Notes: a model not told the origin generated them from the sequence alone. Positions 9,099 through 63,995 are shown, counted from the stretch's first letter. The stretch is DNA of 64,000 nt from an uncultured Sulfurovum sp. (GCA_902727895.1 CACVAP010000090.1:5129-69128), one strand, 5' to 3'. Numbers and translations are program-made.

Positions 9099-9650
9099 CT
9101 ATTTACTTCGTTCTAAAACATTCGTCTTCTCACCATCAAGTGTTTCAACATTCTTCTCTGTCCAATAAACTTTCATGCCCTCACGTCCTACTCTTTTTGC
9201 CCATTTTTCCAACTTATTTCGCTCGCCAATGTACTTGTATTGTGGCACACCAAATCCACAAGAGGTTAAAACCAATTCTACTTTTAGCTCAAAAAACTGT
9301 CTGGCTCCTAAAAATTCATTAAAATGCGTACACATCTCATCCCATCGTTCATCAGCATCATGAATAACATCTGCTGTTCCATACAACTTAAGAATCATGG
9401 GTGCTTTATCAAAAGAGTTAAACATAATGGTCATGCGTCCATTTTCTTGAACATGTGCTGAGGTTTCATTACCTGAACCCGTATGATTTAACCAAACTAC
9501 GGTATGTTCATCAATGATTTTAAAGGTATCCATCCCTTTTGGCGAAACATTAATAAACCCCTCAGCTCCAGCACTTCCGATAACAAACATTTTTTGCTTC
9601 TCTATGAACTCTTTATGTGCTTTGTTTATGGTTTTGAATTTTACTGCCAT
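9099..9650 (-). CDS. pyridoxamine 5'-phosphate oxidase family (FMN-binding split-barrel) protein
   Basis: 183 aa. The pattern FINVSPKG...VVWLNHTGSGNETSAHVQENGRMTIMF is typical of PNPOx-like split-barrel proteins. AAGGA RBS upstream. Confidence 0.7.
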   Translation of the reverse strand: MAVKFKTINKAHKEFIEKQKMFVIGSAGAEGFINVSPKGMDTFKIIDEHTVVWLNHTGSGNETSAHVQENGRMTIMFNSFDKAPMILKLYGTADVIHDADERWDEMCTHFNEFLGARQFFELKVELVLTSCGFGVPQYKYIGERNKLEKWAKRVGREGMKVYWTEKNVETLDGEKTNVLERSK

Positions 9651-9675: not shown

Positions 9676-11205
9676 TTATTTTAATTTTTCTAAAACTATC
9701 TTCAGCTCTTCTATAAGTTCTATACTATTTAAACATTCTTTACGATAAATTTCAATTTCCTCATTACTATGAGAAGAAGGATTAAATAAAATATTTTTAT
9801 AAAAATCTACTTTTATTAAAATAGATTTTAGATTTGATAAATCACATTTTTTCTGGGTTATTTCATTATTAATAACCTCTAAAAGCTCTCGCACTTTATC
9901 TATTTTTTTATCTTCATCCATTGTACTATTTAATATTCCCAATAAATTAGGAATACGTTTATTAATTTGATTCAAAAGGTCATGAGGCTTTACAGCAAAA
10001 ATAATATCATTAGATTTTAAAGCACCAATCATATCTTCTAGTTTTTCCATTTTTCCTATTTCTAATAACTGTTTAAATTCATGAACAATTTTTTCAAATT
10101 CTTTTCTTAAATAATTACCACTACTATGAAATTCTCCCCGTTTCAATTCTTTCTTTGCACGGTACAAATAGTTTACATTACTTTCTTTTATTAGTGCAGT
10201 TTCATGATTATTTTCTCTAAATAAAAATATATTTTTAATATCCCACTTCTCATTTTCATGTCTTATGTTTAACATTCTATTTATTAAATTATAAAACTGA
10301 ATATTATGAGTCAAAATAATTTTCTGGTACTTTCCAAAATTATCTAGAATATATTGAATAATTAGTTTTCTATTTGCCATATCTAAACTAGTTAGAAAAT
10401 CATCTAAGACTAAAAGCTTTAAGTCACTATTAGTCTCATACTTTTTAGCTAATGCAAAATAAATAGCAATAGAAATAAGTTTTAATTTAGCTTCATTAAA
10501 GTGATTTTTAAAATCTCCTTTATCATCAATATCTTTTACTTTTATAGCTATTTTAGGAGAGATAAACTTTTTAGTATCAAATTGAATATCAGAATCCTTA
10601 ACTTCAAAAATAATTTCAAAATTTTCATCTAACTTTTTTAAAATAATATTTACCTCATCTAAAGGTATCTTCTCTTGAAATTTTTCTTTAAATAATCTAT
10701 CAGCCTCTTGTCTCTCTATAACTAATTTTTCTTGTTCATCAATACTACTTCTGTTGACGCTTGTCCGAATCGTCCTATAAATAGAATCTAACTCTGTAAG
10801 TAATGGAAAATGTTTTATCAATTCACTATTAATAACTTGATAGAAATCATATTGAGTAATTTTCTGAAAAACCTTTTCATCTGCAAAATAAATAGTTTGA
10901 TTCTCTAACAGCTCTGCATTAGTTAATATATTATTTTCTCTGTTTAAGTAATTATTATTTAACTCAATATTAACTTCTAAATTCTCAGTAGAGAACTCTC
11001 TATGTATAAATTTCTCTTTTATATCTATTTGATTGGTCACTATTTTCTTATCTTTAAAATAGTAAAAGTTACTATAAAGAGCTTTATATATTGAGCTTTT
11101 ACCTGTTCCATTTTCTCCATAAACTAAGAAGTTCTGTTCGCTTATATCAAAATCTAGGTTATGATGAAATTTGAAGTTTCTAATTATCATATTATTTATT
11201 TTCAT
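9676..11205 (-). CDS. SMC/ABC-type (AAA_13-like) ATPase with extra C-terminal domain, partner of the DUF262 gene
   Basis: Walker A GENGTGKSS, then a ~200-aa helical insertion. Signature-like NEAKLKLISIAIYFAL, Walker B/D-loop LLVLDDFLTSLD and H-loop ILTHN follow. I place the start at ATG 11205 (MKINNMIIRNF...), not the track's 11247. AAGGAG lies 9 nt upstream and the upstream gene's TAA ends 1 nt before it. Confidence 0.75.
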   Translation of the reverse strand: MKINNMIIRNFKFHHNLDFDISEQNFLVYGENGTGKSSIYKALYSNFYYFKDKKIVTNQIDIKEKFIHREFSTENLEVNIELNNNYLNRENNILTNAELLENQTIYFADEKVFQKITQYDFYQVINSELIKHFPLLTELDSIYRTIRTSVNRSSIDEQEKLVIERQEADRLFKEKFQEKIPLDEVNIILKKLDENFEIIFEVKDSDIQFDTKKFISPKIAIKVKDIDDKGDFKNHFNEAKLKLISIAIYFALAKKYETNSDLKLLVLDDFLTSLDMANRKLIIQYILDNFGKYQKIILTHNIQFYNLINRMLNIRHENEKWDIKNIFLFRENNHETALIKESNVNYLYRAKKELKRGEFHSSGNYLRKEFEKIVHEFKQLLEIGKMEKLEDMIGALKSNDIIFAVKPHDLLNQINKRIPNLLGILNSTMDEDKKIDKVRELLEVINNEITQKKCDLSNLKSILIKVDFYKNILFNPSSHSNEEIEIYRKECLNSIELIEELKIVLEKLK

Positions 11206-11206
11206 C

Positions 11207-12931
11207 TTAATTAAACTCCTTGCTTCTATACTTATCATTCTCATCATCTAAGAATATCGCTAACCTTTTAATTAACTCTTTAGTCCTATCTTCAAGGTTC
11301 GTACCCACCAATTCATATTCTGAAATTTTTTTCCCTATTTTTCTTACATCTTTTATGTTAGAATTCAAAAATAATTTTACTTGATTATCAAAACTATTAT
11401 AATTTTGGGTAAAGTCTACAACTATTTTATTACCTAAACTTTTTTTAATTTCAGTATATTTATCTGGATAAAATGGAGAAGCCAACCACAGCTTTTTAGT
11501 AAGGTCGTTTCTTTTTTTCTTATCTTCTATTGTTAGAAGTCCATCTTTCTTATCATGTGAATTCATTTTTTGCATTATCTTTTTATCTAAAGTACTCATA
11601 GTGTCATGAATCATTATATAATTAAAAGAAAATAAAGGAGAAATTGCATTTTGCTCATTATTTAAATAAAAACTTAACAGAGTAAAAATATCTAATGATA
11701 AATCTTTTGGAATTTTATAACTATCTTTTACTAACTCATCAATTTTCAATTGAACCATCTCATAATTTTTTAGAATAAATTTTCTAATATATCTTCGAGA
11801 AAATAAAATCAATGAGTCATATTCTTGATGCTTATCTTTAGGATAATCCGTTAAACTAGTTTTATATAATTTTAAAATTAATTCTATATCAATTTTCTTT
11901 TTTTTATCTATATACTTAATAACTTGAAAGTACTTTGCCAATACAGGGTATACTTGTGGTCTATTAGAAACATCATTGTAAAAATTTATAGACTCTATTA
12001 TTCTAAATAAGTCATTAAATATTTCTTGATATTTTTTATGATTAAATGGAGAATCTTCTTTTTCTAAGAAAAAAATTCTTAAGTTAATCTCATTTTCAAT
12101 TTTGTTATTTTTATCAATATGAGCATATATCTTAAAGATTTCATCTATAGAGTAATTTATTTTATCAGAATAACTATATAATTTTTTCCATTGTTGAATA
12201 AACTCTTTATGTTCTAATTCATTTAATGCCATAGAGTATAGTCGTGCCTTAAATATATCAGAAGTAGAAAGACTTAATCCTCTATTATTGATGGTTTCAA
12301 AAATTTTCAATGCTTTTTCTCTAGCTTTATCAGCATCCTCATCTTCTGTTTCAATAGGTAATATATAGATAGAATCTAATAAAAAATCTGAAAACTTCAA
12401 TATATCATTATGTTTTTTAAACTCTTTTAACTCATTATAAAAATAACAAATATTTTTCTTAAATAAATTGTCTTTTTCTTTGATAGAATTACAAATATCA
12501 CTAGAAAGATTAAAAGCTAAAACTTCTTTAAAATAATTAAAATCTTTTTCCATAAAGACAGTGGTTTCTAATCGTTGTATCTCTTCATCTGTTCTTCTAT
12601 CTTTTATCCATATCGCATCATATAGAGCTTTATTATCTTTATCAAAACTCAATAATACCTTTAAAAGTAAAGTTAAAGAAGTAAGTCTCTGTTGACCATC
12701 AATAACCTCTAACTTATTTCTTTCTTCTCTACTTTTAGCAAGAACAATATTCCCCAAAAAATACCCCTCTTGCTCACTATCATAAAATGCTTTTTTTATA
12801 TCTTCAAAAAGTGCTTTACATTCAATATTTGTCCAAGAGTAGGCTCTTTGATATGGAGGAATAATATATTGATTCTCTCCACTAAAAATTTTATATATTG
12901 ATTTTTGTTCTGCATTTAATGTTAACGCCAT
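11207..12931 (-). CDS. DUF262 (GmrSD N-terminal, ParB-like NTPase/nuclease fold) domain protein
   Basis: 574 aa. Has the hallmark DUF262 motifs IPPYQRAYSW and VIDGQQRLTSLTLLL. The C-terminal third resembles a DUF1524 His-Me finger only weakly (IMIHD ... SLGNKIVV ... NYNSFDNQVK). Confidence 0.85.
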   Translation of the reverse strand: MALTLNAEQKSIYKIFSGENQYIIPPYQRAYSWTNIECKALFEDIKKAFYDSEQEGYFLGNIVLAKSREERNKLEVIDGQQRLTSLTLLLKVLLSFDKDNKALYDAIWIKDRRTDEEIQRLETTVFMEKDFNYFKEVLAFNLSSDICNSIKEKDNLFKKNICYFYNELKEFKKHNDILKFSDFLLDSIYILPIETEDEDADKAREKALKIFETINNRGLSLSTSDIFKARLYSMALNELEHKEFIQQWKKLYSYSDKINYSIDEIFKIYAHIDKNNKIENEINLRIFFLEKEDSPFNHKKYQEIFNDLFRIIESINFYNDVSNRPQVYPVLAKYFQVIKYIDKKKKIDIELILKLYKTSLTDYPKDKHQEYDSLILFSRRYIRKFILKNYEMVQLKIDELVKDSYKIPKDLSLDIFTLLSFYLNNEQNAISPLFSFNYIMIHDTMSTLDKKIMQKMNSHDKKDGLLTIEDKKKRNDLTKKLWLASPFYPDKYTEIKKSLGNKIVVDFTQNYNSFDNQVKLFLNSNIKDVRKIGKKISEYELVGTNLEDRTKELIKRLAIFLDDENDKYRSKEFN

Positions 12932-13167
12932 AGCTCTTACCTTTATTACAATTAATTTTATTTTATCATTTTCTTACTTGTTACTTCTCTAAAGCCTAAT
13001 CAATGGTCGAACACAACAAAGTCTTTCAAAATATTTAAATAACCCAAGATTCACACTTCCTCAAAAAAGTAGTAGTTAACAAAAGGAAAAATAATATACT
13101 AGCTATTTTAAGAGAAGTAATTTAAGCCTTTCGGAAAAGTTTTTATTTTATGCGAATTAATTTTAAT

Positions 13168-13189
13168 GGTGGGTTGAAACCCACCCTAC
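13168..13189 (-). repeat. REP-like element (GTAG head plus GC-rich hairpin); may also terminate the cytochrome b gene
   Basis: The minus strand reads GTAGGGTGGGTTTCAACCCACC, with an 8-bp stem GGTGGGTT/AACCCACC. It starts 11 nt after the stop of the 13200..13787 gene. Same head-plus-hairpin design as at 20.7 kb and 31.3 kb. Confidence 0.6.
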
Positions 13190-15588: not shown

Positions 15589-16944
15589 TTAGATATCAAG
15601 CTCATTGGTATACTCTTTTACAACCTTTAAGGTTGTAAAACCTGTACCTTCTTCTCCATCTATATTCGCCTTTACATTTATGACAACACCCTCTGCATCG
15701 TATTTAAATACTCTTTTAACATCATCTATAAATGGACACACACCACCTAAAAATGTACTAACTTCACTTTCTATTTGCCCTATACTTGTATAGGTACTCT
15801 CTGTCATATAGTGACAAGCTTCTCTATCCTCTAATGCATACTTAATTTCTTTCTTTATAACTTGACCATCTTTATTATAATCCATAATTTGTAAACGTGA
15901 ATCATAACTTGAAATCGAATGTCTTTCACTTCTAGTTATTTTGTTATCTTCGTCGTAACTCATTTTGTTTACAGCCTTAGCATCACCATAGTAAAGTTCT
16001 TCATAAATAACTTGACCATTATCATTTAACTCAATTATATCTTTAGCTACCTGATCTTCTTCACTCGGAGTTACAACATAGGGATCCTCATAATAAACTG
16101 CTCCTTCATACATAGAATAGTCTTCATCTACTAAATCATTTTCGTTAGTACCTCTTTTAGTAGTAACAACTGTTCCATTATCATCATAGGTATGAGCTGA
16201 ATAATAAATAGATTCACCTTGAGCATCAAACGTTTGAGATGTTAAACGATTAGCATTGTCATCATAAGTATATGATATTTTCCTATTTTCACTAGGATAG
16301 AGATAATACTCAACAGTTCGTTCTGTCAAATTACTGTTTTCATCATAAAATGAATACTCTTTTAAGTAAGTACCATCATCATAAAGAACATACATTCCTT
16401 GATGGTTCATAGTCTGCTTTTCAACAGAAAGTAAATTCCCATAGTGAGGGTCATAATTTAAACGCTTAATACTATAATAATCATATGCATTTACTGTTAC
16501 AGAACTATTTGTTTCTGTGCCATTAGCATCTCTCACCACAACGGTAATGTCATGCTCGCCTTTCGAAAAAGCCTTTTCTAGCGTTGCACCCATATCAATA
16601 AGTTCTTTACCTTCATACCACCAGTAATTACATCTACTTATCTCAGTCGTATTATTTACCTCTGCTACTAACTTAAGTACTGTGTCTCTAGTTATGTTTA
16701 AATCACCTTTAATACTTATTGAAAACCTTTTAGCTTCTTCTGTTTCATTTACTTCACCTGTTTTATTCATCTCGTCCATACTGTTATTATAAACTTCTAA
16801 AATTCCTTCTCCTATCAAAATCTCCGATGGTGCCGTAACTGTTTGAGGTGCAGGCATTCCATCAATATCTGTATGATATAAATAAAAAATAATCAGCGTT
16901 AATAGCATAGGTATAATTAAGAGTTTTTGTATTAGTTTTTTCAT
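15589..16944 (-). CDS. membrane-anchored/secreted protein with a PKD-like Ig domain and YD-repeat-like segments
   Basis: 451 aa. N-terminal hydrophobic anchor LLIIPMLLTLIIFYLY. PKD-like block GEHDITVVVRDANGTETNSSVTVNA. Several Y-x-YD-x-x-(G/N) repeats, for example YTYDDNANRLTSQTFD and HTYDDNGTVV. Confidence 0.55.
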   Translation of the reverse strand: MKKLIQKLLIIPMLLTLIIFYLYHTDIDGMPAPQTVTAPSEILIGEGILEVYNNSMDEMNKTGEVNETEEAKRFSISIKGDLNITRDTVLKLVAEVNNTTEISRCNYWWYEGKELIDMGATLEKAFSKGEHDITVVVRDANGTETNSSVTVNAYDYYSIKRLNYDPHYGNLLSVEKQTMNHQGMYVLYDDGTYLKEYSFYDENSNLTERTVEYYLYPSENRKISYTYDDNANRLTSQTFDAQGESIYYSAHTYDDNGTVVTTKRGTNENDLVDEDYSMYEGAVYYEDPYVVTPSEEDQVAKDIIELNDNGQVIYEELYYGDAKAVNKMSYDEDNKITRSERHSISSYDSRLQIMDYNKDGQVIKKEIKYALEDREACHYMTESTYTSIGQIESEVSTFLGGVCPFIDDVKRVFKYDAEGVVINVKANIDGEEGTGFTTLKVVKEYTNELDI

Positions 16945-17098
16945 CTGATTCTTCCTTATTTTTTAGAGTATATATTTAAGTCATGCTTTACTATGATTAA
17001 AAAACTATACTTAATTCTATTTTTAAACTTTATGAACTATTTTTCCAAGAGAAATAGTAATTTTATAAGCCATACACCATCTGTTAACGAATTTTTCA

Positions 17099-17104
17099 TA
17101 TAAT
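17099..17104 (+). promoter_or_regulatory. putative -10 box (TATAAT)
   Basis: caTATAATtcgc follows a T-rich tract about 70 nt upstream of the 17173 start. The same TATAATTCGC decamer precedes the aminotransferase gene at 50800. Confidence 0.25.
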
Positions 17105-17172
17105 TCGCAATAATTTAGGGAATTTAAAGAAATTTATAGGAAATTATTCTTAACAGTAAAGAAAGGGAAACT

Positions 17173-19005
17173 TTGATAACTAATAATAAAAAGAAAGATT
17201 GGGTAGATTTTTCTGCTAAAATTGTTTATTTATATGAAAATTTATTTAAAAATGACAAGAATATGCTTATCCAATACTTTTCAGATAAAACAGCTAAACA
17301 ACAACTAAGTAACCGTAAAAAGACCATCGAGAATTGGTTAGAAGGAAAAACTAAAAAGCCAAATGGATTTCACCTTTCAAAATTTAAGATAAATGAATAC
17401 ACCCTAAATGGAGAACTACTACTCCCAAAAATAGCCTTTGAAAAATGGTCACTGGAAACTTTTCAAAAAAGAGTCAATCGCTATTTATTACAGAAGCAAG
17501 AGATAGACGTTCCCCATAAAATGAAATATATTTATTTTTTCAGTACCAGAGAAAGCAAACTAAGTTATTTTGAAATCAGCTATCCAAAGCCAGAAAATGA
17601 TGCTATTATTAGTGTAACTTCCCCAACCTATACCCTAAATTCAATCTATCATGGAAGTATTACTGTTCATAGTAGTATGTGTTATATAAATGTTCAAAAT
17701 GACTTTGACTACATGAATTACATCTTTAAAAACAATGCAGACTTCTATACAGATGAAATAAAAGTCTTTGGTGTTGCCCAAGCTGTGGATGCACTAACAA
17801 GAGAGCCCAAAGCTTTTTTGACCCTTCTAACTTCCAACAAATTAACTGCTGAAGAAGAATGCCGTTATGCCCATAAACTAAACTACTCCAACCTTATGAT
17901 TGCAGATGATTTTACTCATGGATGTGCCTTAGAACGTGACTACTTTTTAGAAAACTTTTCCCAAAAAATTCGTGACCTATACAGAGACACAAACCATTAT
18001 GCCATTAATGAGCATTTTAAAAATGATATGTACTTTGACATCGTACTGCAAGAGTATCAATCATATATAGAGTTACTAGAAAAGTCTCTTTACCACAATG
18101 ACTACCCCATTAACCACAAACGTCAATCCATCTTGTTTGCCTTAGAACATATGTGTAAAGAAAAAAAAGAAACAGCGACCATACTCTATCATCTCGATAG
18201 TGAGAGTTTAAGCATACTCGACTCTAAAAACTCTATTATGGACATGCAACTTAAACTGGTCAAAGCAGATAAATTAACACTCTCTTACCTCTTCACCATT
18301 GAAGATATATCACTCATCACAGAAAGGGTTATTCAACAAATTCAATATTTAGAAAAAAACAACATCTCTGTTAAACTAACGAATAATTCAAGGTCTATTT
18401 ATTCTAAAATTTTAATTGTCTATAACAAAGACTTTGCGATTTACAAAAGAAAAAATGAACAGACTGACAACCATGTCACTAAAAGTGCAGGCAGGATTGA
18501 GCGTTTAGGCTATGAAGTTGAGGCATTGGAAAAAGATGCTATTTGTATTGATGACTTTCTTGAAGAGAACTACCCACTCAATGGACGATGGTACCACTAC
18601 TCTTTTACTTCAAAAAAAGATACAAATGTTTTTCAGGAAACTATCTTCGACATTAAAAACTATACCTTTACAGCATCATACCCCAAAGGTCAACGTATTG
18701 GCTCATTGTTACAGACAGAAGAATATACCTTGATTTTATTACAAAACTCTGTAATCCGATTACATAACATACATTTAAAAGAAAAGATTTTTCATGTGAG
18801 TATCATTGGTAAAGAGATAGGTATACATCATAAAGACGTACTACTCTTTGGGCTCTTTTCTAAAACGAAACTCTCAAATGAACAAGCACTTTTATTACTC
18901 AATAGCATACACCAAAAAGAAGATGAAGAATTTAGAGTCAAAATATGCAACAATTTTGACTCTACTTTAGCATATTTTGATGCCAATGACGACACTTTGA
19001 CTTAA
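17173..19005 (+). CDS. hypothetical protein (610 aa), possible N-terminal XRE-like HTH
   Basis: Long uninterrupted ORF with a TTG start after AAAGGGAAA. The N-terminal segment KTAKQQLSNRKKTIENWLEGKTKKPN resembles the HTH_XRE pattern. I recognise nothing in the rest. Confidence 0.5.
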   Translation: MITNNKKKDWVDFSAKIVYLYENLFKNDKNMLIQYFSDKTAKQQLSNRKKTIENWLEGKTKKPNGFHLSKFKINEYTLNGELLLPKIAFEKWSLETFQKRVNRYLLQKQEIDVPHKMKYIYFFSTRESKLSYFEISYPKPENDAIISVTSPTYTLNSIYHGSITVHSSMCYINVQNDFDYMNYIFKNNADFYTDEIKVFGVAQAVDALTREPKAFLTLLTSNKLTAEEECRYAHKLNYSNLMIADDFTHGCALERDYFLENFSQKIRDLYRDTNHYAINEHFKNDMYFDIVLQEYQSYIELLEKSLYHNDYPINHKRQSILFALEHMCKEKKETATILYHLDSESLSILDSKNSIMDMQLKLVKADKLTLSYLFTIEDISLITERVIQQIQYLEKNNISVKLTNNSRSIYSKILIVYNKDFAIYKRKNEQTDNHVTKSAGRIERLGYEVEALEKDAICIDDFLEENYPLNGRWYHYSFTSKKDTNVFQETIFDIKNYTFTASYPKGQRIGSLLQTEEYTLILLQNSVIRLHNIHLKEKIFHVSIIGKEIGIHHKDVLLFGLFSKTKLSNEQALLLLNSIHQKEDEEFRVKICNNFDSTLAYFDANDDTLT

Positions 19006-58460: not shown

Positions 58461-58894
58461 TAACGAATCGACCTTATGTTGGTTTGACTTAACTTATATA
58501 TTTTAGAAGCTTGTCCATTTTTTTTCTTAGGAAAAGAAACTATCACTTCGGCATTGTCTTTGGCGTATTGTTCTTCATAGTCTGCACCACTTAAGTTTGC
58601 TGAAGAAGAGTAAAACCATTTGAGCCGATCTAAAAGTAAATTGTGTTCCGTATTTTTAACCACACGAAATGACAAGCCATTGGGCATAATAAACGTTGTT
58701 CGTTTAGCACGACGCACACGGTTTTTAAATTTGTTAGGAACACGCGTAAATGTTTGTAAAGTTTCTAAAGAATTAACCACCTGTATATAGTGCTTATTTG
58801 GCTTCCTCTTTTTAGCTCGGTCTATTTTTGTACTCTCTTGAGAAACAAAGCCTATGGTGGTGTCTGTTTGGGTTAGGTAGAGGTTAGTTTTCAT
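58460..58894 (-). CDS. short Sua5/YciO/YrdC/YwlC family protein
   Basis: 144 aa. TDTTIGF (compare TDTVYG) and SSANLSG (compare TSAN.SG). TAATG overlap with nagA. AAGGAA RBS lies inside the end of the giant upstream ORF. Confidence 0.65.
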   Translation of the reverse strand: MKTNLYLTQTDTTIGFVSQESTKIDRAKKRKPNKHYIQVVNSLETLQTFTRVPNKFKNRVRRAKRTTFIMPNGLSFRVVKNTEHNLLLDRLKWFYSSSANLSGADYEEQYAKDNAEVIVSFPKKKNGQASKIYKLSQTNIRSIR

Positions 58895-61800
58895 TTAACT
58901 TCCTTTGTGCTAATGTTTTATTATTAATTGTCCTAAACTTCAATGGTAAAAAATATTTAGAATACTCCAAAGGTAACTCCATTAAGAGTTTATTAATTAT
59001 TACCTTTATCTCTTCATCATTTTCAAGACTAAATAATCCTAAATATTTTGAGAAAAGTTTAATTCTTAATTCAATATTATTTGTTTGCTTAATAGGCATG
59101 TAAATTAGTATTTCAAATAATGTAGCTCTTTGCTGTTTAGTTGTTATTTTAAGAGATATATTTTTAATATCTTCTTTAACTTTATTAGAAATTTGATAGT
59201 CATTAATATTTTTGAGTTGCTTTACAAAAAATAATGAATCATATAAACTTAGTAAAACTTGTTCTTCTGTATCTGAAAGAGGGGTATATTTTTCTATGGT
59301 TTCTACCAATCTATTTTTTAAATCATTACTCAGAGGGTAAACATTATATTTTAAATTAAAAAATGTAATAAATATAGAGTTATTTTCATTAGATACCTCT
59401 TCCATTTCTTCTAGCATCTCTTTTAATCTTGGGAAAGTATCTAAAATAGAGTTTTCTTCTAGTTGTAAAAAAGAATTAATAGCATTAAATCTATTATGTG
59501 TTAATTGTGTGAAATCTGGATAAGCGTCTTCTCTTATTAACTCTTCTAATTTTCTTTTTATAATAGAACTACCAAAGTAATCAAGGTTATCATCTGTAAT
59601 ATATGAAATAGAAGTCATTACAAATTCCTCATAGCTTAAATCATAATTCAACAAGTCCATACTATATGAACTATCAGGTCTAAATACTTCTAAAGTAACT
59701 CTATTAGAATGAGTCTTAAATTCTTTAAGTATCCAACTATAATCTACACTATAAGCAGTAAAATATTTCATTAGTTTATTGCTATGCGACCAAATAAGGG
59801 CTATTTTCATATCATCATTTAAAGTAGTAAATTTAATATCAAACTCTTGTTTAATAAATTTCTTTATAGCAAAGAATGCTTCTAATCTTAATTTAAATTC
59901 TTTAGTAAATATCTTTTTTGTCAGATAGAGTATAAACTTTTTATAGCTATCATTTTGAATAGACACCAAGACTTTTATAAGTTGTATATGTGATATTGGT
60001 GTAGATGAAGTATTTAAAAATGCTTTTAAAATTTCTTTTTGTTCTTTGTCTATTTTATCTTTTAATATATCAATGATTTGTTGAGGAAAAGAGATAGGGA
60101 AATGATGTATCTCATCAATGGTCTTTAAAATATCTTCTTCATTTACAAAAGTTTCTACAGAGAGATTAAATGCTTCATTAAATTCAAGGCTACTGTCTAG
60201 TCTAAAATGATTTAAAAGTATATCTATATTATCAGGAATTAAAGAGTCAAAATTTAACCTTTGCTTTTCTAAATCCTTTTGAATATTAGAGTAAAATTTA
60301 GAATCTTCTTTAACTTGATATAGTTTTTCTATTCTCTCATGATGATTCTGAACATTAATAATATCATGGATTAACTCTTTTTTCTTTGTATCTGACATGT
60401 CAAACCATTCAGGGTTTGCTTCTAATAACTTTTTTCTCTTAGGTCTTGATGTTGATAAAAGCATAAAGGTATCATTCATAAAGCCCTGATTATTAATTTT
60501 AATTCGTTTTTGATTTTCAATTATAATAGATTCTAAAATAATAGATTCATTCTTATCTATAGCTTTTATTATCTCTTTACCACCACCATTTATAACTTTT
60601 TTAATTTGATTATTAAAGACTTCATTATTGAATAATAAACCATTGACACCTATTCTTTTTTCAAATGGTAACTTTTCTATTAATTCTTTATTTTCATATA
60701 AATTATTTTTAATTTTTTCAGGTAAATTGCTAATCAGTCCTATAACTATTATCTGCTCCTCTTCTTTTAAATCTTTTATAAAAAAACTTTGAATTAATGA
60801 ATAGCTTAGGTTATCAATAAAATTTTGAAATAACTCAGAATTAGCCTTAAAAAACTTTGATATCAAATTATGATATATCCAATCAAAATACAATTTTTGA
60901 TTTTCATCAGAAATAATAGTAATTGCTTGAATAAATAGACTTGTAATTTCTATTACAGTCATAGTTCTTGTAATATCAGTATTATCTGATAGTTTATTTT
61001 TTATTAAAGAGAACATATTTAAAGTAAACAAGTTTTCTAAAACCCAATTTAAATAAATATATCTATCTTCTTCGTATTCAAAATCTTCATTCCATAAATC
61101 AATAATACTATGATTTATCTCTCTTACTTGATTTATTACAAAAAATGGTTCTGAATATTGGTTATTCTCTATCTCTGTTTGTTCAAATGGTTTAATATAT
61201 TTAAAATTCTGAACCATAAATTGTAATGACTCTTTTAATGTTTTTAAATCTTCACTTTCTTCTACTCTATTCCCTTCTATTTTACACTGTTTTAGATGAT
61301 AAATTATTTCTTTTGAACTAATAAGTAAAAAAAGATACTTTCTTTTTCTTATTTCTAATAAGCTAGAGTAGTATTCATGTTTTGTGATTATCTTACTTTT
61401 ATAAAATGTAAATAGTATATCATTTACACTAATTATTTCATTTTCATTTTTAGTTGTTTGAAAACTATTAACATATCTATCATCTATACAAATTAATATA
61501 TTATCTTTTTGAAATTCTAATAAAGTATAAATTGAAAGAAGTAAGTTTGATGACTCTTCTTTATCTTTTAATTTTTCTTTACTTACTTCAGGAGCATAAT
61601 ATAATTTTTCAAGTTTAAAATTTATTTTTAACAACTCTATTAACTCATGAGAAACATTAATATCATGCAAAATAAAAAATATATTACTTGGTAAATAAAC
61701 TTTAACAAAGGAATCAATGACTAGCTGTAACTGATGAATTGAGAACAATAAAAGTAAAGAAGTTATATCCAAATATAATTTAGCACTTTTAAATTTTTCA

Positions 61801-63995
61801 AGTTCTAAAAAAGTATATTTTTTGGCACTTCTAATATAAAGAGTTTTTTGATTTTCTTTACAAAAGCTATTAAAAAAATCTCTATCTAAATAATGAATTG
61901 AAATATCAGAGTTTTTATACAGAGTAGTTTCATGATTTTTTTGTTCATTAATTTTAGATGCGTATCCTTCAATTTCATTAAGGTTTATCATCTGACCTAT
62001 GATACTTTTATCCTCAATTAATTGGGGTAAATATGAAATTACTAAGTCATTTATAATACCATTTTTATGCAAATCTAAAGCCAGTTCTTTTTCTGATTTA
62101 TTTATACCATTATTATTTATGACTTCTTGTAAAAGAACAGAGCTATTTTTAGATACTGATGCAATTTGGATTTTAGAGTTAATATCAATATTTGGATTTT
62201 TAATTACATTAGTTGCCAAAGTTTCTAATTTATCTTGAGAGTCAGTTTTTTTATAAAAATAAGTTAAATTTGATATATCCTCTAATTTATTTGTAAAGTT
62301 ATTTTTTTCATAAATTTGTATTGAGCGTTCAGGAAAACCTAATGAGCTTTCACAAGTAGCCTTTATCTTTAAAAAGCTATCTTTTATTAATTTACTATTA
62401 ACTTTAGGTAACCATATATCTATAAGTTTATTTGCTTTATCAAAGTTTTGACTATTTATTTCCCCTAAAATAACTAATTCAACAACCTTTTCAGTTTGAA
62501 AATACTTTAACAAATAATCTGAATATTCAGTAATATATTCCCAATTATTCTCTTCTGATTTCATCTCACAAATTTTTAAGCGATAAATAGGATTTTTATT
62601 CTCTTTAAATAATTTCTCATATAACTCAGAAGCTGACTTATAATCATTGGTCACTTTATATATATGAGCCTTAACATCATCTTTTCTACTCATATCATTT
62701 TCATCAACAAATTTTAAAGCCTCTTTATAAAGTTCAAAATTTATTAAAATATTTATATAGTACTCTCTCCAATAATCTATTTTATTTTCTTCAAGATAAA
62801 TATTTTTATATTTATCTAATACTTCAAATGTTTTCTTTTTATCTTCCTGTTTAAAATAATACCTAATCAGAGTATCTGCTTTGTATAGATTATTAATATC
62901 TTCATCTAACTCTAAATTCTTTATATCCTCTCTAATATCTATGTTTAAATCATAAATAATATTAAATTGAACAGCCACAAGTCTATACTTTTTATCCTCA
63001 TATAAACTTTGAATATACTCTATAGCTTCATCTATGTTTATTAACCATTTAATAGTTGCTATCCAAGCTTTATCTCTATATTCAGAATTCTCTTTTTCAA
63101 CTTCATCTAGTATAGTTTTTGCCATATTTATTTTTTCTTGGCTTTTACTGTCTATTTTTAATGCATTTTTTTGAATAATAGGTGGAAGTAAATTAGGAAG
63201 AACATCATATAGTGTTGATTGGTAAAAAAGAATAATAGCTTTTACTCGTTTTGATTCTAAATAATTGTCTTTTATATCTAATGATTTATTTATATCTTTT
63301 AATGCTTGTTCATGATTATCATCTTTACGGTACAATTCATACAATGATTTCAGTCTATAAGTTTCATGATTTCTATCTTTTATATCAATAAGGTCTAATG
63401 TTGCCTTTACATCTTGAAAATTATTTGTACTCATATATAATGCTATTTTTTGATTTAATGTTGCTACTTCATTGTTATCAAGTAATAAAATAGCTTTAGC
63501 TAGGTCACCTTTATCAAATTCAATCCAAGATAAAAGTCTATTTACATATAATGAACTATCTAATTGTTGTACCTTATCTACTAAAGATTCAGTTTTATCA
63601 GATTCATTAGTTATAGATACTCTAGCTTCTTCATAAACTATTTTAGCTTTTTGTTGATTTGAAAGAATACTCCATTTAGGAGATATTTTAATTTCATCTA
63701 TCCAAGTTTGTACCTCTTTTTCTGTTCCATTAAGATATTCATCTTTGATTTTTTTGAACTCTTTTGTAACTTCCTCTTGAATAATAATCTTATACTCATC
63801 TAATTGCAAACTACTTGATTGTTGTAGAGAGCTTGATACTTCTATGCTTGTTGACTCTAGTGTTACTATCTCAATACCACCATACTTTTCTAAAGAAATA
63901 TCTTTCAATAAAAAACTAACATTTATACAATCAAATGAATTATTATCTGTAATAACCTTAGATATTACTCCTGTAAGCATATAATCACTATTCAC
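58884..63995 (-). CDS. giant hypothetical protein (at least 1703 aa) with TPR-like repeats and an internal PIN-like region; N-terminus may lie outside the window
   Basis: Uninterrupted 5.1-kb ORF. The track start is GTG at 63995, but the frame is still open to position 64000. The N-terminal third is helical-repeat rich. I saw no Walker A motif. Very AT-rich. Confidence 0.6.
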   Translation of the reverse strand: MNSDYMLTGVISKVITDNNSFDCINVSFLLKDISLEKYGGIEIVTLESTSIEVSSSLQQSSSLQLDEYKIIIQEEVTKEFKKIKDEYLNGTEKEVQTWIDEIKISPKWSILSNQQKAKIVYEEARVSITNESDKTESLVDKVQQLDSSLYVNRLLSWIEFDKGDLAKAILLLDNNEVATLNQKIALYMSTNNFQDVKATLDLIDIKDRNHETYRLKSLYELYRKDDNHEQALKDINKSLDIKDNYLESKRVKAIILFYQSTLYDVLPNLLPPIIQKNALKIDSKSQEKINMAKTILDEVEKENSEYRDKAWIATIKWLINIDEAIEYIQSLYEDKKYRLVAVQFNIIYDLNIDIREDIKNLELDEDINNLYKADTLIRYYFKQEDKKKTFEVLDKYKNIYLEENKIDYWREYYINILINFELYKEALKFVDENDMSRKDDVKAHIYKVTNDYKSASELYEKLFKENKNPIYRLKICEMKSEENNWEYITEYSDYLLKYFQTEKVVELVILGEINSQNFDKANKLIDIWLPKVNSKLIKDSFLKIKATCESSLGFPERSIQIYEKNNFTNKLEDISNLTYFYKKTDSQDKLETLATNVIKNPNIDINSKIQIASVSKNSSVLLQEVINNNGINKSEKELALDLHKNGIINDLVISYLPQLIEDKSIIGQMINLNEIEGYASKINEQKNHETTLYKNSDISIHYLDRDFFNSFCKENQKTLYIRSAKKYTFLELEKFKSAKLYLDITSLLLLFSIHQLQLVIDSFVKVYLPSNIFFILHDINVSHELIELLKINFKLEKLYYAPEVSKEKLKDKEESSNLLLSIYTLLEFQKDNILICIDDRYVNSFQTTKNENEIISVNDILFTFYKSKIITKHEYYSSLLEIRKRKYLFLLISSKEIIYHLKQCKIEGNRVEESEDLKTLKESLQFMVQNFKYIKPFEQTEIENNQYSEPFFVINQVREINHSIIDLWNEDFEYEEDRYIYLNWVLENLFTLNMFSLIKNKLSDNTDITRTMTVIEITSLFIQAITIISDENQKLYFDWIYHNLISKFFKANSELFQNFIDNLSYSLIQSFFIKDLKEEEQIIVIGLISNLPEKIKNNLYENKELIEKLPFEKRIGVNGLLFNNEVFNNQIKKVINGGGKEIIKAIDKNESIILESIIIENQKRIKINNQGFMNDTFMLLSTSRPKRKKLLEANPEWFDMSDTKKKELIHDIINVQNHHERIEKLYQVKEDSKFYSNIQKDLEKQRLNFDSLIPDNIDILLNHFRLDSSLEFNEAFNLSVETFVNEEDILKTIDEIHHFPISFPQQIIDILKDKIDKEQKEILKAFLNTSSTPISHIQLIKVLVSIQNDSYKKFILYLTKKIFTKEFKLRLEAFFAIKKFIKQEFDIKFTTLNDDMKIALIWSHSNKLMKYFTAYSVDYSWILKEFKTHSNRVTLEVFRPDSSYSMDLLNYDLSYEEFVMTSISYITDDNLDYFGSSIIKRKLEELIREDAYPDFTQLTHNRFNAINSFLQLEENSILDTFPRLKEMLEEMEEVSNENNSIFITFFNLKYNVYPLSNDLKNRLVETIEKYTPLSDTEEQVLLSLYDSLFFVKQLKNINDYQISNKVKEDIKNISLKITTKQQRATLFEILIYMPIKQTNNIELRIKLFSKYLGLFSLENDEEIKVIINKLLMELPLEYSKYFLPLKFRTINNKTLAQRKLNEN

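Follow-up and report, generated by a model that had tools for sequence, protein, structure and literature searches.

In a 64,000-nucleotide stretch of DNA from an uncultured Sulfurovum sp. (GCA_902727895.1 CACVAP010000090.1:5129-69128; hereafter the window, with positions counted from its first letter), the minus strand carries two open reading frames (ORFs), one following the other in the same orientation (12931..11207, then 11247/11205..9676; Table 1). Gene 1 encodes a DUF262 protein and gene 2 an ABC (ATP-binding cassette) ATPase with an additional C-terminal domain, and we analyzed them as a candidate two-gene immunity module. An earlier reading by a model, here called the original prediction, had proposed two translationally coupled genes joined as TAA-g-ATG with AAGGAG inside the end of the first, and the sequence bears this out: AAGGAG (11221..11216) is followed by six nucleotides, the TAA stop codon (11209..11207), a single g and the ATG of gene 2 (11205..11203). 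The DUF262 and ATPase motifs that it quoted are likewise all present, and their core residues are invariant in alignments of 72 homologues of gene 1 and 82 homologues of gene 2. The latter alignment opens with MKI, with M1 nearly invariant, and because it begins at the 11205 Met we take the ATPase to be 509 residues long.

Table 1. Features of the two-gene pair and its upstream region, in window positions.
Feature	Position	Strand	Basis or remark
Gene 1: DUF262 (ParB-fold NTPase) protein, 574 residues	11207..12931	-	ORF including stop codon; DndI/GmrSD-like architecture
DUF262 NTPase/sensor domain, residues 12-231	12239..12898	-	Pfam; QR, DGQQR and FxxxN motifs
Helical middle domain, residues ~232-422	11666..12238	-	predicted: AlphaFold2 (AF2) model all-helical; Foldseek alignment to DndI spans the region
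Degenerate His-Me (DUF1524-like) C-terminal region, residues 423-574	11210..11665	-	without the catalytic His
Coupling junction: AAGGAG, then TAA-g-ATG	11203..11221	-	sequence reading
Gene 2: ABC (SMC/Rad50-type) ATPase, 509 residues, with C-terminal effector-like domain	9676..11205	-	ORF including stop codon
ATPase head, residues 1-341	10183..11205	-	Pfam, alignment, AF2 model
Walker A, G30-S38	11092..11118	-	all but T34 invariant (82-sequence alignment)
All-alpha C-terminal domain, residues 343-509 (~165 residues)	9679..10179	-	alignment, AF2 model; putative divergent DUF4145-type HEPN
Invariant residues of the C-terminal domain: R367; E371; H479; E490	10105..10107; 10093..10095; 9769..9771; 9736..9738	-	82 close homologues
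Upstream intergenic region, likely promoter region of the pair	12932..13165	-	inferred only

The two genes recur together. Wherever upstream sequence existed, ATPase relatives of at least 35% identity had a member of the same DUF262 family directly upstream, and a GmrSD_N gene directly precedes the ATPase in 13/13 loci recovered by exact-protein look-ups of ATPase homologues. A genome scan with one genome per species yielded 80 distinct ATPase sequences, 17 of them preceded by gene 1's DUF262 family; these 17 come from Sulfurovum, Sulfurimonas and Campylobacterales (Campylobacterota), Ghiorsea, Leptospiraceae and several Bacteroidota, and the pair occurs in at least four bacterial phyla. Both the 13 loci and the 17 genome-scan sequences agree with the idea, raised in the original prediction, that homologues of the two genes should be neighbors. 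The junction is tight, at -11 nucleotides in eight loci, -1 in three and +1 in the window, with +90 in one distant locus (L058). The two proteins also diverge in step (Mantel r=0.76 across 21 pairs; 0/5000 permutations reach this r). The downstream gene is different in every homologous locus, so the module has no conserved third component. One Campylobacterales metagenome-assembled genome carries two whole DUF262 and ATPase modules in tandem (L008:5297-11407), 46-47% identical to each other, which suggests that they may be paralogous specificities.

Pfam assigns gene 1 to a single family, GmrSD_N/DUF262 (E=3.3e-38, residues 12-231), with no DUF1524 match at E<=0.1, and NCBIfam gave no family for it. 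A protein identical to it is recorded from an uncultured Sulfurovum metagenome-assembled genome. Invariant residues in the 72-sequence alignment comprise Y27, Q28 and R29; D78, G79, Q80, Q81 and R82; and F211, E212, T213 and N215. A profile built from the 72 homologues matches the crystal structure of DndI (9jfl) at 4.7e-15 over positions 8-515, and the AF2 model (predicted local distance difference test score, pLDDT, 81.5) gives a full-length Foldseek alignment with DndI, followed by SspE and BrxU. In a scan with the defense models of PADLOC v2.0.0, the best models for gene 1 were HEC-06 and Orf5, over the N-terminal halves of these models only. Given the DndI profile match and the full-length model alignment, gene 1 has the architecture of the single-chain DUF262-DUF1524 enzymes. 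By inference from the model, its middle domain would be the equivalent of the ParBDB, GmrSD-M or SspE-M DNA-binding domain (for the ParBDB concept, see PMC12065111).

The C-terminal half of gene 1 tells a different story from this well-kept front, as no residue past Q336 is invariant. At alignment column 429, where the His-Me His should stand, the 72 homologues have A (44), S (16), P (6), V (4) or G (1), and His in none. The motif position reads (K/E/D)(A/S)IYP in the family and N428-A429 in the window protein, compared with EHIYP in DndI, DHIYP in BrxU and EHICP in HEC-06; substitutions at this His or its partner Asn, H472A in HEC-06 and N541A in DndI, abolish function. A GN pair (500-501) and D506 are partly conserved, residues ~441-496 form a lineage-specific helical insertion within the His-Me-like region, and some orthologues (464 residues) do without the entire region. 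The original prediction had seen a faint His-Me remnant here. Its 'SLGNK' does match the conserved GN, but its 'IMIHD' is an insertion private to the window protein, a gap in 71/72 aligned sequences, and the truly homologous N428-A429 has no His. Its broader description of a nuclease-poor DUF262 protein fits the missing DUF1524 match and the His-less column. With the ParB-fold DUF262 NTPase and the helical DNA-binding domain intact, but the catalytic His lost and the domain absent from some orthologues, the gene 1 protein should be able to recognize DNA and probably cannot cut it, and we conclude that it is most probably a sensor/NTPase without a nuclease of its own.

Gene 2 begins with an ABC ATPase head. 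Pfam places it in SMC_N (4.5e-11, residues 3-319), and AAA_15 reaches just 22 bits against a cut-off of 32. Its best solved relatives are Rad50 and SMC heads. Beyond Walker A, which is canonical, the residues invariant among the 82 sequences are N237-E238, the Walker B pair D268-D269, S273 and D275 of the D-loop (S273-L-D275), and T299-H300 of the H-loop. The AF2 model (pLDDT 83.4) shows a helical insert at ~110-191 and neither a long coiled coil nor a hinge. Searched in full against PDB with Foldseek, it retrieves cohesin, condensin and Rad50 heads, the RecF-containing 9a5q and the ATPase chains of retron-IA (PtuA); as these are ABC heads only, the search is uninformative on the tail. NCBIfam gave only RecF and Rad50 matches, far under cut-off. 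AAA_13, the PrrC/RloC family, has no Pfam match in the window ATPase, and its scores in homologues, 24-32 bits, stay under the cut-off of 36 and concern only head positions 510-618. Thus, of the profile hidden Markov models that the original prediction had put forward, Pfam recovered DUF262 strongly in the window proteins but not DUF1524 or AAA_13, and AAA_15 stayed below threshold.

Behind the head lies an all-alpha domain, with a core of ~120 residues and a central insert that varies; its last helix begins with a His. The motif layout of the domain is R-x3-E ... N-P-x-S-H ... E, in which N475 and S478 are nearly invariant in addition to the four invariant residues of Table 1. In 45-46 of 46 distant relatives linked to Type IIG enzymes, at 22-30% identity, R367, E371, H479 and E490 persist, and they are also present in a homologue on a Nostoc plasmid. 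No Pfam model covers the tail above threshold. When 27 tail sequences were scanned singly, DUF4145 was matched in three (best 9.2e-4, over profile positions 3-85 of 88) and HEPN in three (9.3e-3), all subthreshold; both are families of the HEPN clan CL0291, and DUF4145 usually occurs fused with restriction enzymes or in linkage to them. In published descriptions, HEPN domains have an early helix with an acidic residue, then an insert, and a last helix that opens with a His preceded by a polar residue at -4; the tail fits this layout of motifs and is of matching size and secondary structure. Searching with a word-indexed profile of the tail yielded 13 fragments and no bridging family, and among 1.84 billion representative proteins the tail occurs only at the C-terminus of ~500-residue proteins or in fragments. 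We regard the assignment of the tail as a divergent DUF4145-type HEPN ribonuclease as moderately supported.

The ATPase is found with more than one kind of partner. In 46/80 distinct ATPase sequences of the genome scan, the gene directly upstream encodes not a DUF262 protein but a Type IIG restriction-modification enzyme of 1100-1300 residues, with Eco57I and TaqI_C domains and PADLOC REase_MTase_IIG matches down to 3e-202. This Type IIG and ATPase pairing seems to be without a name. In L018, L020, L023, L035, L042, L067, L081 and ~40 other loci the ATPase, with the R-x3-E and N-P-x-S-H tail motifs retained, stands at ~8001 behind Type IIG enzymes of ~1200 residues, and some of the ATPase-linked Type IIG enzymes have DUF7149 and DUF7814 N-termini. 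Further upstream partners are split Type IIG genes, bare TaqI_C, TIR-TPR-TaqI_C, McrC, Schlafen/AlbA_2 and an NsnA-like DUF262 protein. The last, in Nonlabens tegetincola (L058:6513-7910), ends in a fused region that resembles a type II restriction endonuclease and is separated from the ATPase by 90 nucleotides, without overlap. In Poribacteria and Latescibacterota (L029:4582-8004, L034:5626-8004, L072:5437-8004) the partner consists of TPR repeats and TaqI_C, preceded in L029 and L034 by an N-terminal TIR domain, and no methylase or nuclease domain was found in any of these three partners. On the conjugative Nostoc cf. commune plasmid pANSO36B (L169:4232-6678), a 338-residue TaqI-like specificity protein overlaps the start of a 477-residue ATPase. 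The ATPase with its R/E/H tail is the constant element of this wider family and the DNA-recognition protein the variable one.

Several genomic settings point to mobility. In Aliarcobacter (L004-L007 and L092) the module adjoins TnsA/TnsB of Tn7-like elements, in L092 also TniB/TniQ, apparently as cargo; in L005 it is followed by a DNA methylase, a HATPase_c protein, a metallophosphatase and an integrase. Elsewhere the module lies beside transposases, near a Septu-like pair of ATPase and HNH genes, or inside a polysaccharide locus. These contexts are compatible with a mobile cassette. Carriage of the DUF262 version by phages or plasmids was considered and rejected: it has no match among GenBank phages, IMG/VR viral contigs hold only the Type IIG-linked version, and a plasmid collection gave just two distant matches.

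Composition points the same way within the window. The G+C content of the pair is 23.7%, compared with a mean of 34.1% +/- 2.8% for the other 47 window ORFs. The original prediction had the direction of this difference right (0.237 versus 0.341), although the 43% that it gave for a purL sample lies above the values of the window ORFs. With a conserved coupled pair, low G+C and mobile contexts, its impression of horizontal acquisition holds up, and the pair looks horizontally acquired. It was also right that the pair is wedged between housekeeping genes, here a PNPOx-like gene and glyS downstream and a cytochrome b561 gene and thyX upstream. The REP (repetitive extragenic palindromic) element that it placed at the border is not borne out: the stop codon of cytochrome b561 is followed directly by a hairpin (13166..13189; perfect 7-bp stem GGTGGGT/ACCCACC, loop TTCA) that is found once within the window, and we reject the REP claim on this ground. 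The hairpin lacks a T-run and was not called by the terminator scan. Promoter and terminator scans gave no more sites than in shuffled sequence; the best sigma-70-like match upstream of the pair (12984..12955) scores 9/12, and shuffled sequence does equally well. Around the window pair, neither a tRNA gene nor meaningful direct or inverted repeats on the flanks point to an integration event. The PNPOx-like gene (9099..9650) is 75-88% identical to genes in many metagenome contigs (L094-L135), where it has other neighbors. Since none of these relatives adjoins glyS, cytochrome b or thyX, the order of genes around the pair is not conserved even among close relatives, and an empty insertion site is not demonstrable. 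Near the other end of the window, a 1703-residue ORF (58884..63995, minus strand) has a G+C content as low as that of the pair (0.234) and no Pfam family at E<=1e-3, and may be another horizontally acquired gene. Two further ORFs, of 451 residues (15589..16944, minus strand) and 610 residues (17173..19005, plus strand), also have no Pfam family and flank a low-G+C intergenic region at ~16800-17400.

We compared the module with named defense systems, and it lacks at least one defining feature of each. The original prediction knew of no named system built from this pair, and none emerged here: PADLOC matches of both window proteins are to domain-level parts only, and the reviews and surveys of DUF262 systems consulted name no such pair; the ABC-ATPase classification of Krishnan et al., 2020, which possibly covers this clade, lies outside the comparison. 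What did not stand is the implied lack of precedent. The theme of DUF262 with an ABC ATPase and that of restriction-linked ABC-ATPase-HEPN proteins are both already established, the first by Menshen, which couples a DUF262 protein without DUF1524 to an ABC ATPase, and the second by Anantharaman et al., who described restriction-modification-linked ABC-ATPase-HEPN proteins in 2013 (PMC3710099).

Like the module, Menshen (NsnA-NsnB-NsnC) places an ABC ATPase behind a DUF262 protein that has a helical DNA-binding domain but lacks an active DUF1524, and its proposed logic runs from DUF262 sensor through ABC ATPase transducer to nuclease effector (PMC12065111). Unlike the module, it consists of three genes, the third of which, nsnC, encodes an inactive PIN domain and a nuclease; the window gene after the ATPase is the PNPOx-like housekeeping gene. 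NsnB combines an OLD-type AAA_15 with a DUF3696 tail, whereas the module ATPase has an SMC_N-type head and a HEPN-like tail, and the window ATPase has no NsnB match at E<=0.1 in PADLOC and no DUF3696 in Pfam. Gene 1 resembles NsnA in architecture, and PADLOC's NsnA is absent among its matches at E<=0.014. In effect, the module would fuse to its ATPase the effector that Menshen keeps in a separate NsnC.

Gene 1 shares its three-part architecture and its QR, DGQQR and FxxxN motifs with DndI, SspE, GmrSD, BrxU and HEC-06, DndI being its best solved relative and HEC-06 its best PADLOC model. Those enzymes, however, act alone and need a (D/E)H...N His-Me site, whereas in the gene 1 family A or S stands in place of the His, some members lack the domain, and none is without an ATPase partner. 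The conserved, overlapping ATPase gene makes it less likely that gene 1 works as a single polypeptide. In this probable need for a second co-encoded protein it resembles the DUF262 proteins of TgvAB and GrwAB from Vibrio cholerae, but there both partners have DUF262, one has an active DUF1524 nuclease and neither is an ABC ATPase.

From the side of the ATPase, PrrC and RloC share an N-terminal Rad50-like ABC NTPase, a small helical C-terminal domain with an essential-looking His and a linkage to restriction. The tail of the module is closer to DUF4145 than to PrrC and lacks the Rx4-6H arginine, and the partners in the family are DUF262 or Type IIG/TaqI_C proteins rather than a type I enzyme. 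The best PADLOC match of the ATPase head is MAD3 of MADS (9.3e-9, and 5.6e-17 for a Type IIG-linked relative). MAD3, which lies beside the MAD2 methyltransferase, is needed for MADS defense through restriction and not methylation, but the model spans the head only (374 positions), and the mandatory mad6, mad7 and mad8 are absent from the module. A known ABC ATPase with an adjacent small ribbon-helix-helix (RHH) DNA-specificity partner is similar in that ATPase and partner co-evolve; the module ATPase belongs to another clade, has no long coiled coil and is partnered by a ParB-fold or TaqI_C protein. None of the partners that define Septu (PtuB HNH), Gabija (GajA TOPRIM with GajB), PARIS (AriB TOPRIM) or Lamassu (LmuA) is in the locus, and PADLOC matches to PtuA and GajA cover the N-terminal P-loop region only. 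Neither window protein has a PADLOC match to Dazbog (DzbA/DzbB) or PD-T4-2_A/B. We therefore rejected membership in GmrSD/BrxU/SspE/DndI/HEC-06, Menshen, PrrC/RloC, MADS, Septu, Gabija, PARIS, Lamassu, Dazbog and PD-T4-2; the pair maps cleanly onto none of them, as the original prediction had anticipated.

We give about an even chance to the explanation that these two genes form an immunity module, self-contained and horizontally mobile, in which a DUF262 DNA sensor relays through an ABC ATPase to a HEPN-like RNase. The DUF262 protein and the ATPase would form a complex, in which the DUF262 subunit would cycle NTP and bind foreign DNA, probably DNA that is modified or non-self in some other respect. 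Once bound to DNA, it would alter the state of the ABC ATPase dimer, and the ATPase would free the HEPN-like domain to cut RNA (tRNA or mRNA), so that translation would stop in the infected cell as an abortive response. We favor such a relay, with the effector outsourced to the ATPase, because the ATPase carries an extra conserved C-terminal domain with catalytic-looking invariant residues; of the two arrangements weighed in the original prediction, this is the one that may apply. The relay would amount to the logic of Menshen with the effector fused to the ATPase, or to the architecture of PrrC with a different partner.

A number of observations weigh against this explanation. The ABC signature is degenerate (FNEAK) and Walker B has DD instead of DE, so ATPase activity is not assured. 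The best DUF4145 score of the tail, 19.7 bits, lies under the Pfam gathering score of 23.1, and only 3/27 sequences gave a match. Where HEPN domains with the canonical Rx4-6H motif have the R, the tail has a hydrophobic residue; its own motif is L-N-P-x-S-H, and the invariant R367-x3-E371 is located elsewhere in the domain. Absence of this Arg is a variation reported for some HEPN families. Searches with a tail profile gave only chance helical matches in PDB (FliS, designed proteins) and scattered single matches in PADLOC. Shared inheritance alone could account for the co-divergence of the two proteins. Finally, many loci, the window included, lie among housekeeping genes and not in recognizable defense islands. 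Since several loci simply sit between housekeeping genes, enrichment in defense islands is not demonstrated.

The PrrC analogy drawn in the original prediction is apt, since the same ATPase superfamily stands mostly behind Type IIG restriction-modification enzymes, and it suggests another way in which the module might work. The ATPase-HEPN protein could be a guard, silent while bound to its partner and firing, as a second line of defense, only once this partner is attacked or displaced by an anti-restriction factor of a phage. PrrC itself, an ABC-ATPase-HEPN protein, is silenced by the EcoprrI restriction enzyme and freed by the T4 Stp peptide (PMC3710099), and the 46/80 wider-family ATPases directly behind complete Type IIG enzymes have partners that need no extra effector. 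Weak AAA_13 matches in several homologues fit as well, but these are subthreshold and confined to the ATPase head. A DUF262 partner without a working nuclease offers no first-line restriction to guard, and bare TaqI_C or TIR-TPR-TaqI_C partners suit a DNA-recognition subunit of the ATPase better than a guarded enzyme. We therefore consider a guard, the main rival of the relay, unlikely, and we think it quite improbable that the pair is instead a DNA-targeting, type IV-like restriction complex. In such a complex the ATPase would clamp or loop DNA, as Rad50, SMC and DndD do, and the ParB-fold DUF262 domain itself or the R/E/H tail, as a DNase, would nick or cut it. All characterized DUF262 relatives (GmrSD, BrxU, SspE, DndI, HEC-06, GrwAB) act on DNA, ParB/Srx-fold proteins are able to nick it (PMC12839542), the ATPase head is SMC/Rad50-like, and the related MAD3 is required for restriction in MADS and not for methylation. 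Yet there is no recognizable DNase site, given the loss of the His-Me His and the lack of a match to any other nuclease family in Pfam, PADLOC or NCBIfam; the head has no long coiled coil, and the only weak family matches of the tail are to RNase domains of the HEPN clan.

Two further readings would do without phage sensing. Tight translational coupling with a putative neutralizer upstream, the Tn7-like cargo and transposase-adjacent locations, and the commonness of HEPN toxins in toxin-antitoxin systems would all suit an addiction module in which the DUF262 protein neutralizes an ATPase-HEPN toxin and the pair stabilizes its carrier element. An NTPase of 460-580 residues with invariant catalytic motifs would nevertheless be an unusual antitoxin, many copies sit singly in chromosomes, surrounded by housekeeping genes, and the partners in the wider family are DNA-recognition proteins, which together make an addiction module very unlikely. 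More improbable still, to the point of being nearly negligible, is a pair outside immunity altogether, a ParB-like and SMC-like duo that would help a mobile element to segregate or repair its DNA. In chromosome segregation SMC is loaded by ParB, and both folds are represented here, but the ATPase has neither coiled coil nor hinge and ends in a tail with catalytic-looking invariant residues. The DUF262 clade is of restriction type, with DndI, HEC-06 and SspE as best matches; the distribution is sporadic across phyla, with low G+C; and partners are swapped with Type IIG restriction-modification enzymes.

If the relay from DUF262 sensor to HEPN-like RNase is correct, the pair would join foreign-DNA recognition of the DUF262/GmrSD type with ABC-ATPase-gated HEPN RNases of the PrrC type, which have not previously been shown together, and would offer a compact two-protein model for converting the sensing of DNA into an abortive response at the RNA level. 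The DUF262 protein may also be an example of a restriction enzyme that became a dedicated sensor. PADLOC v2.0.0 does not recognize the pair as a system, and current defense annotations may therefore miss it. More tentatively, and with somewhat less than even confidence, we suggest that the pair is one branch of a large unnamed class in which one ABC-ATPase-HEPN protein serves as 'adaptor-effector' and, by translational coupling, is combined with exchangeable partners for DNA recognition: Type IIG restriction-modification enzymes, bare TaqI_C, TIR-TPR-TaqI_C, McrC or DUF262 proteins. The wider family, with its Type IIG, TaqI_C and TIR partners, forms a comparative series for the role of ATPases adjacent to restriction-modification enzymes. 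Were the broader proposal true, the class would be a generalized PrrC-like, RNA-targeting arm for DNA-sensing immunity, and its DUF262 branch would represent a type IV restriction enzyme that evolved into a pure sensor and discarded its own nuclease.

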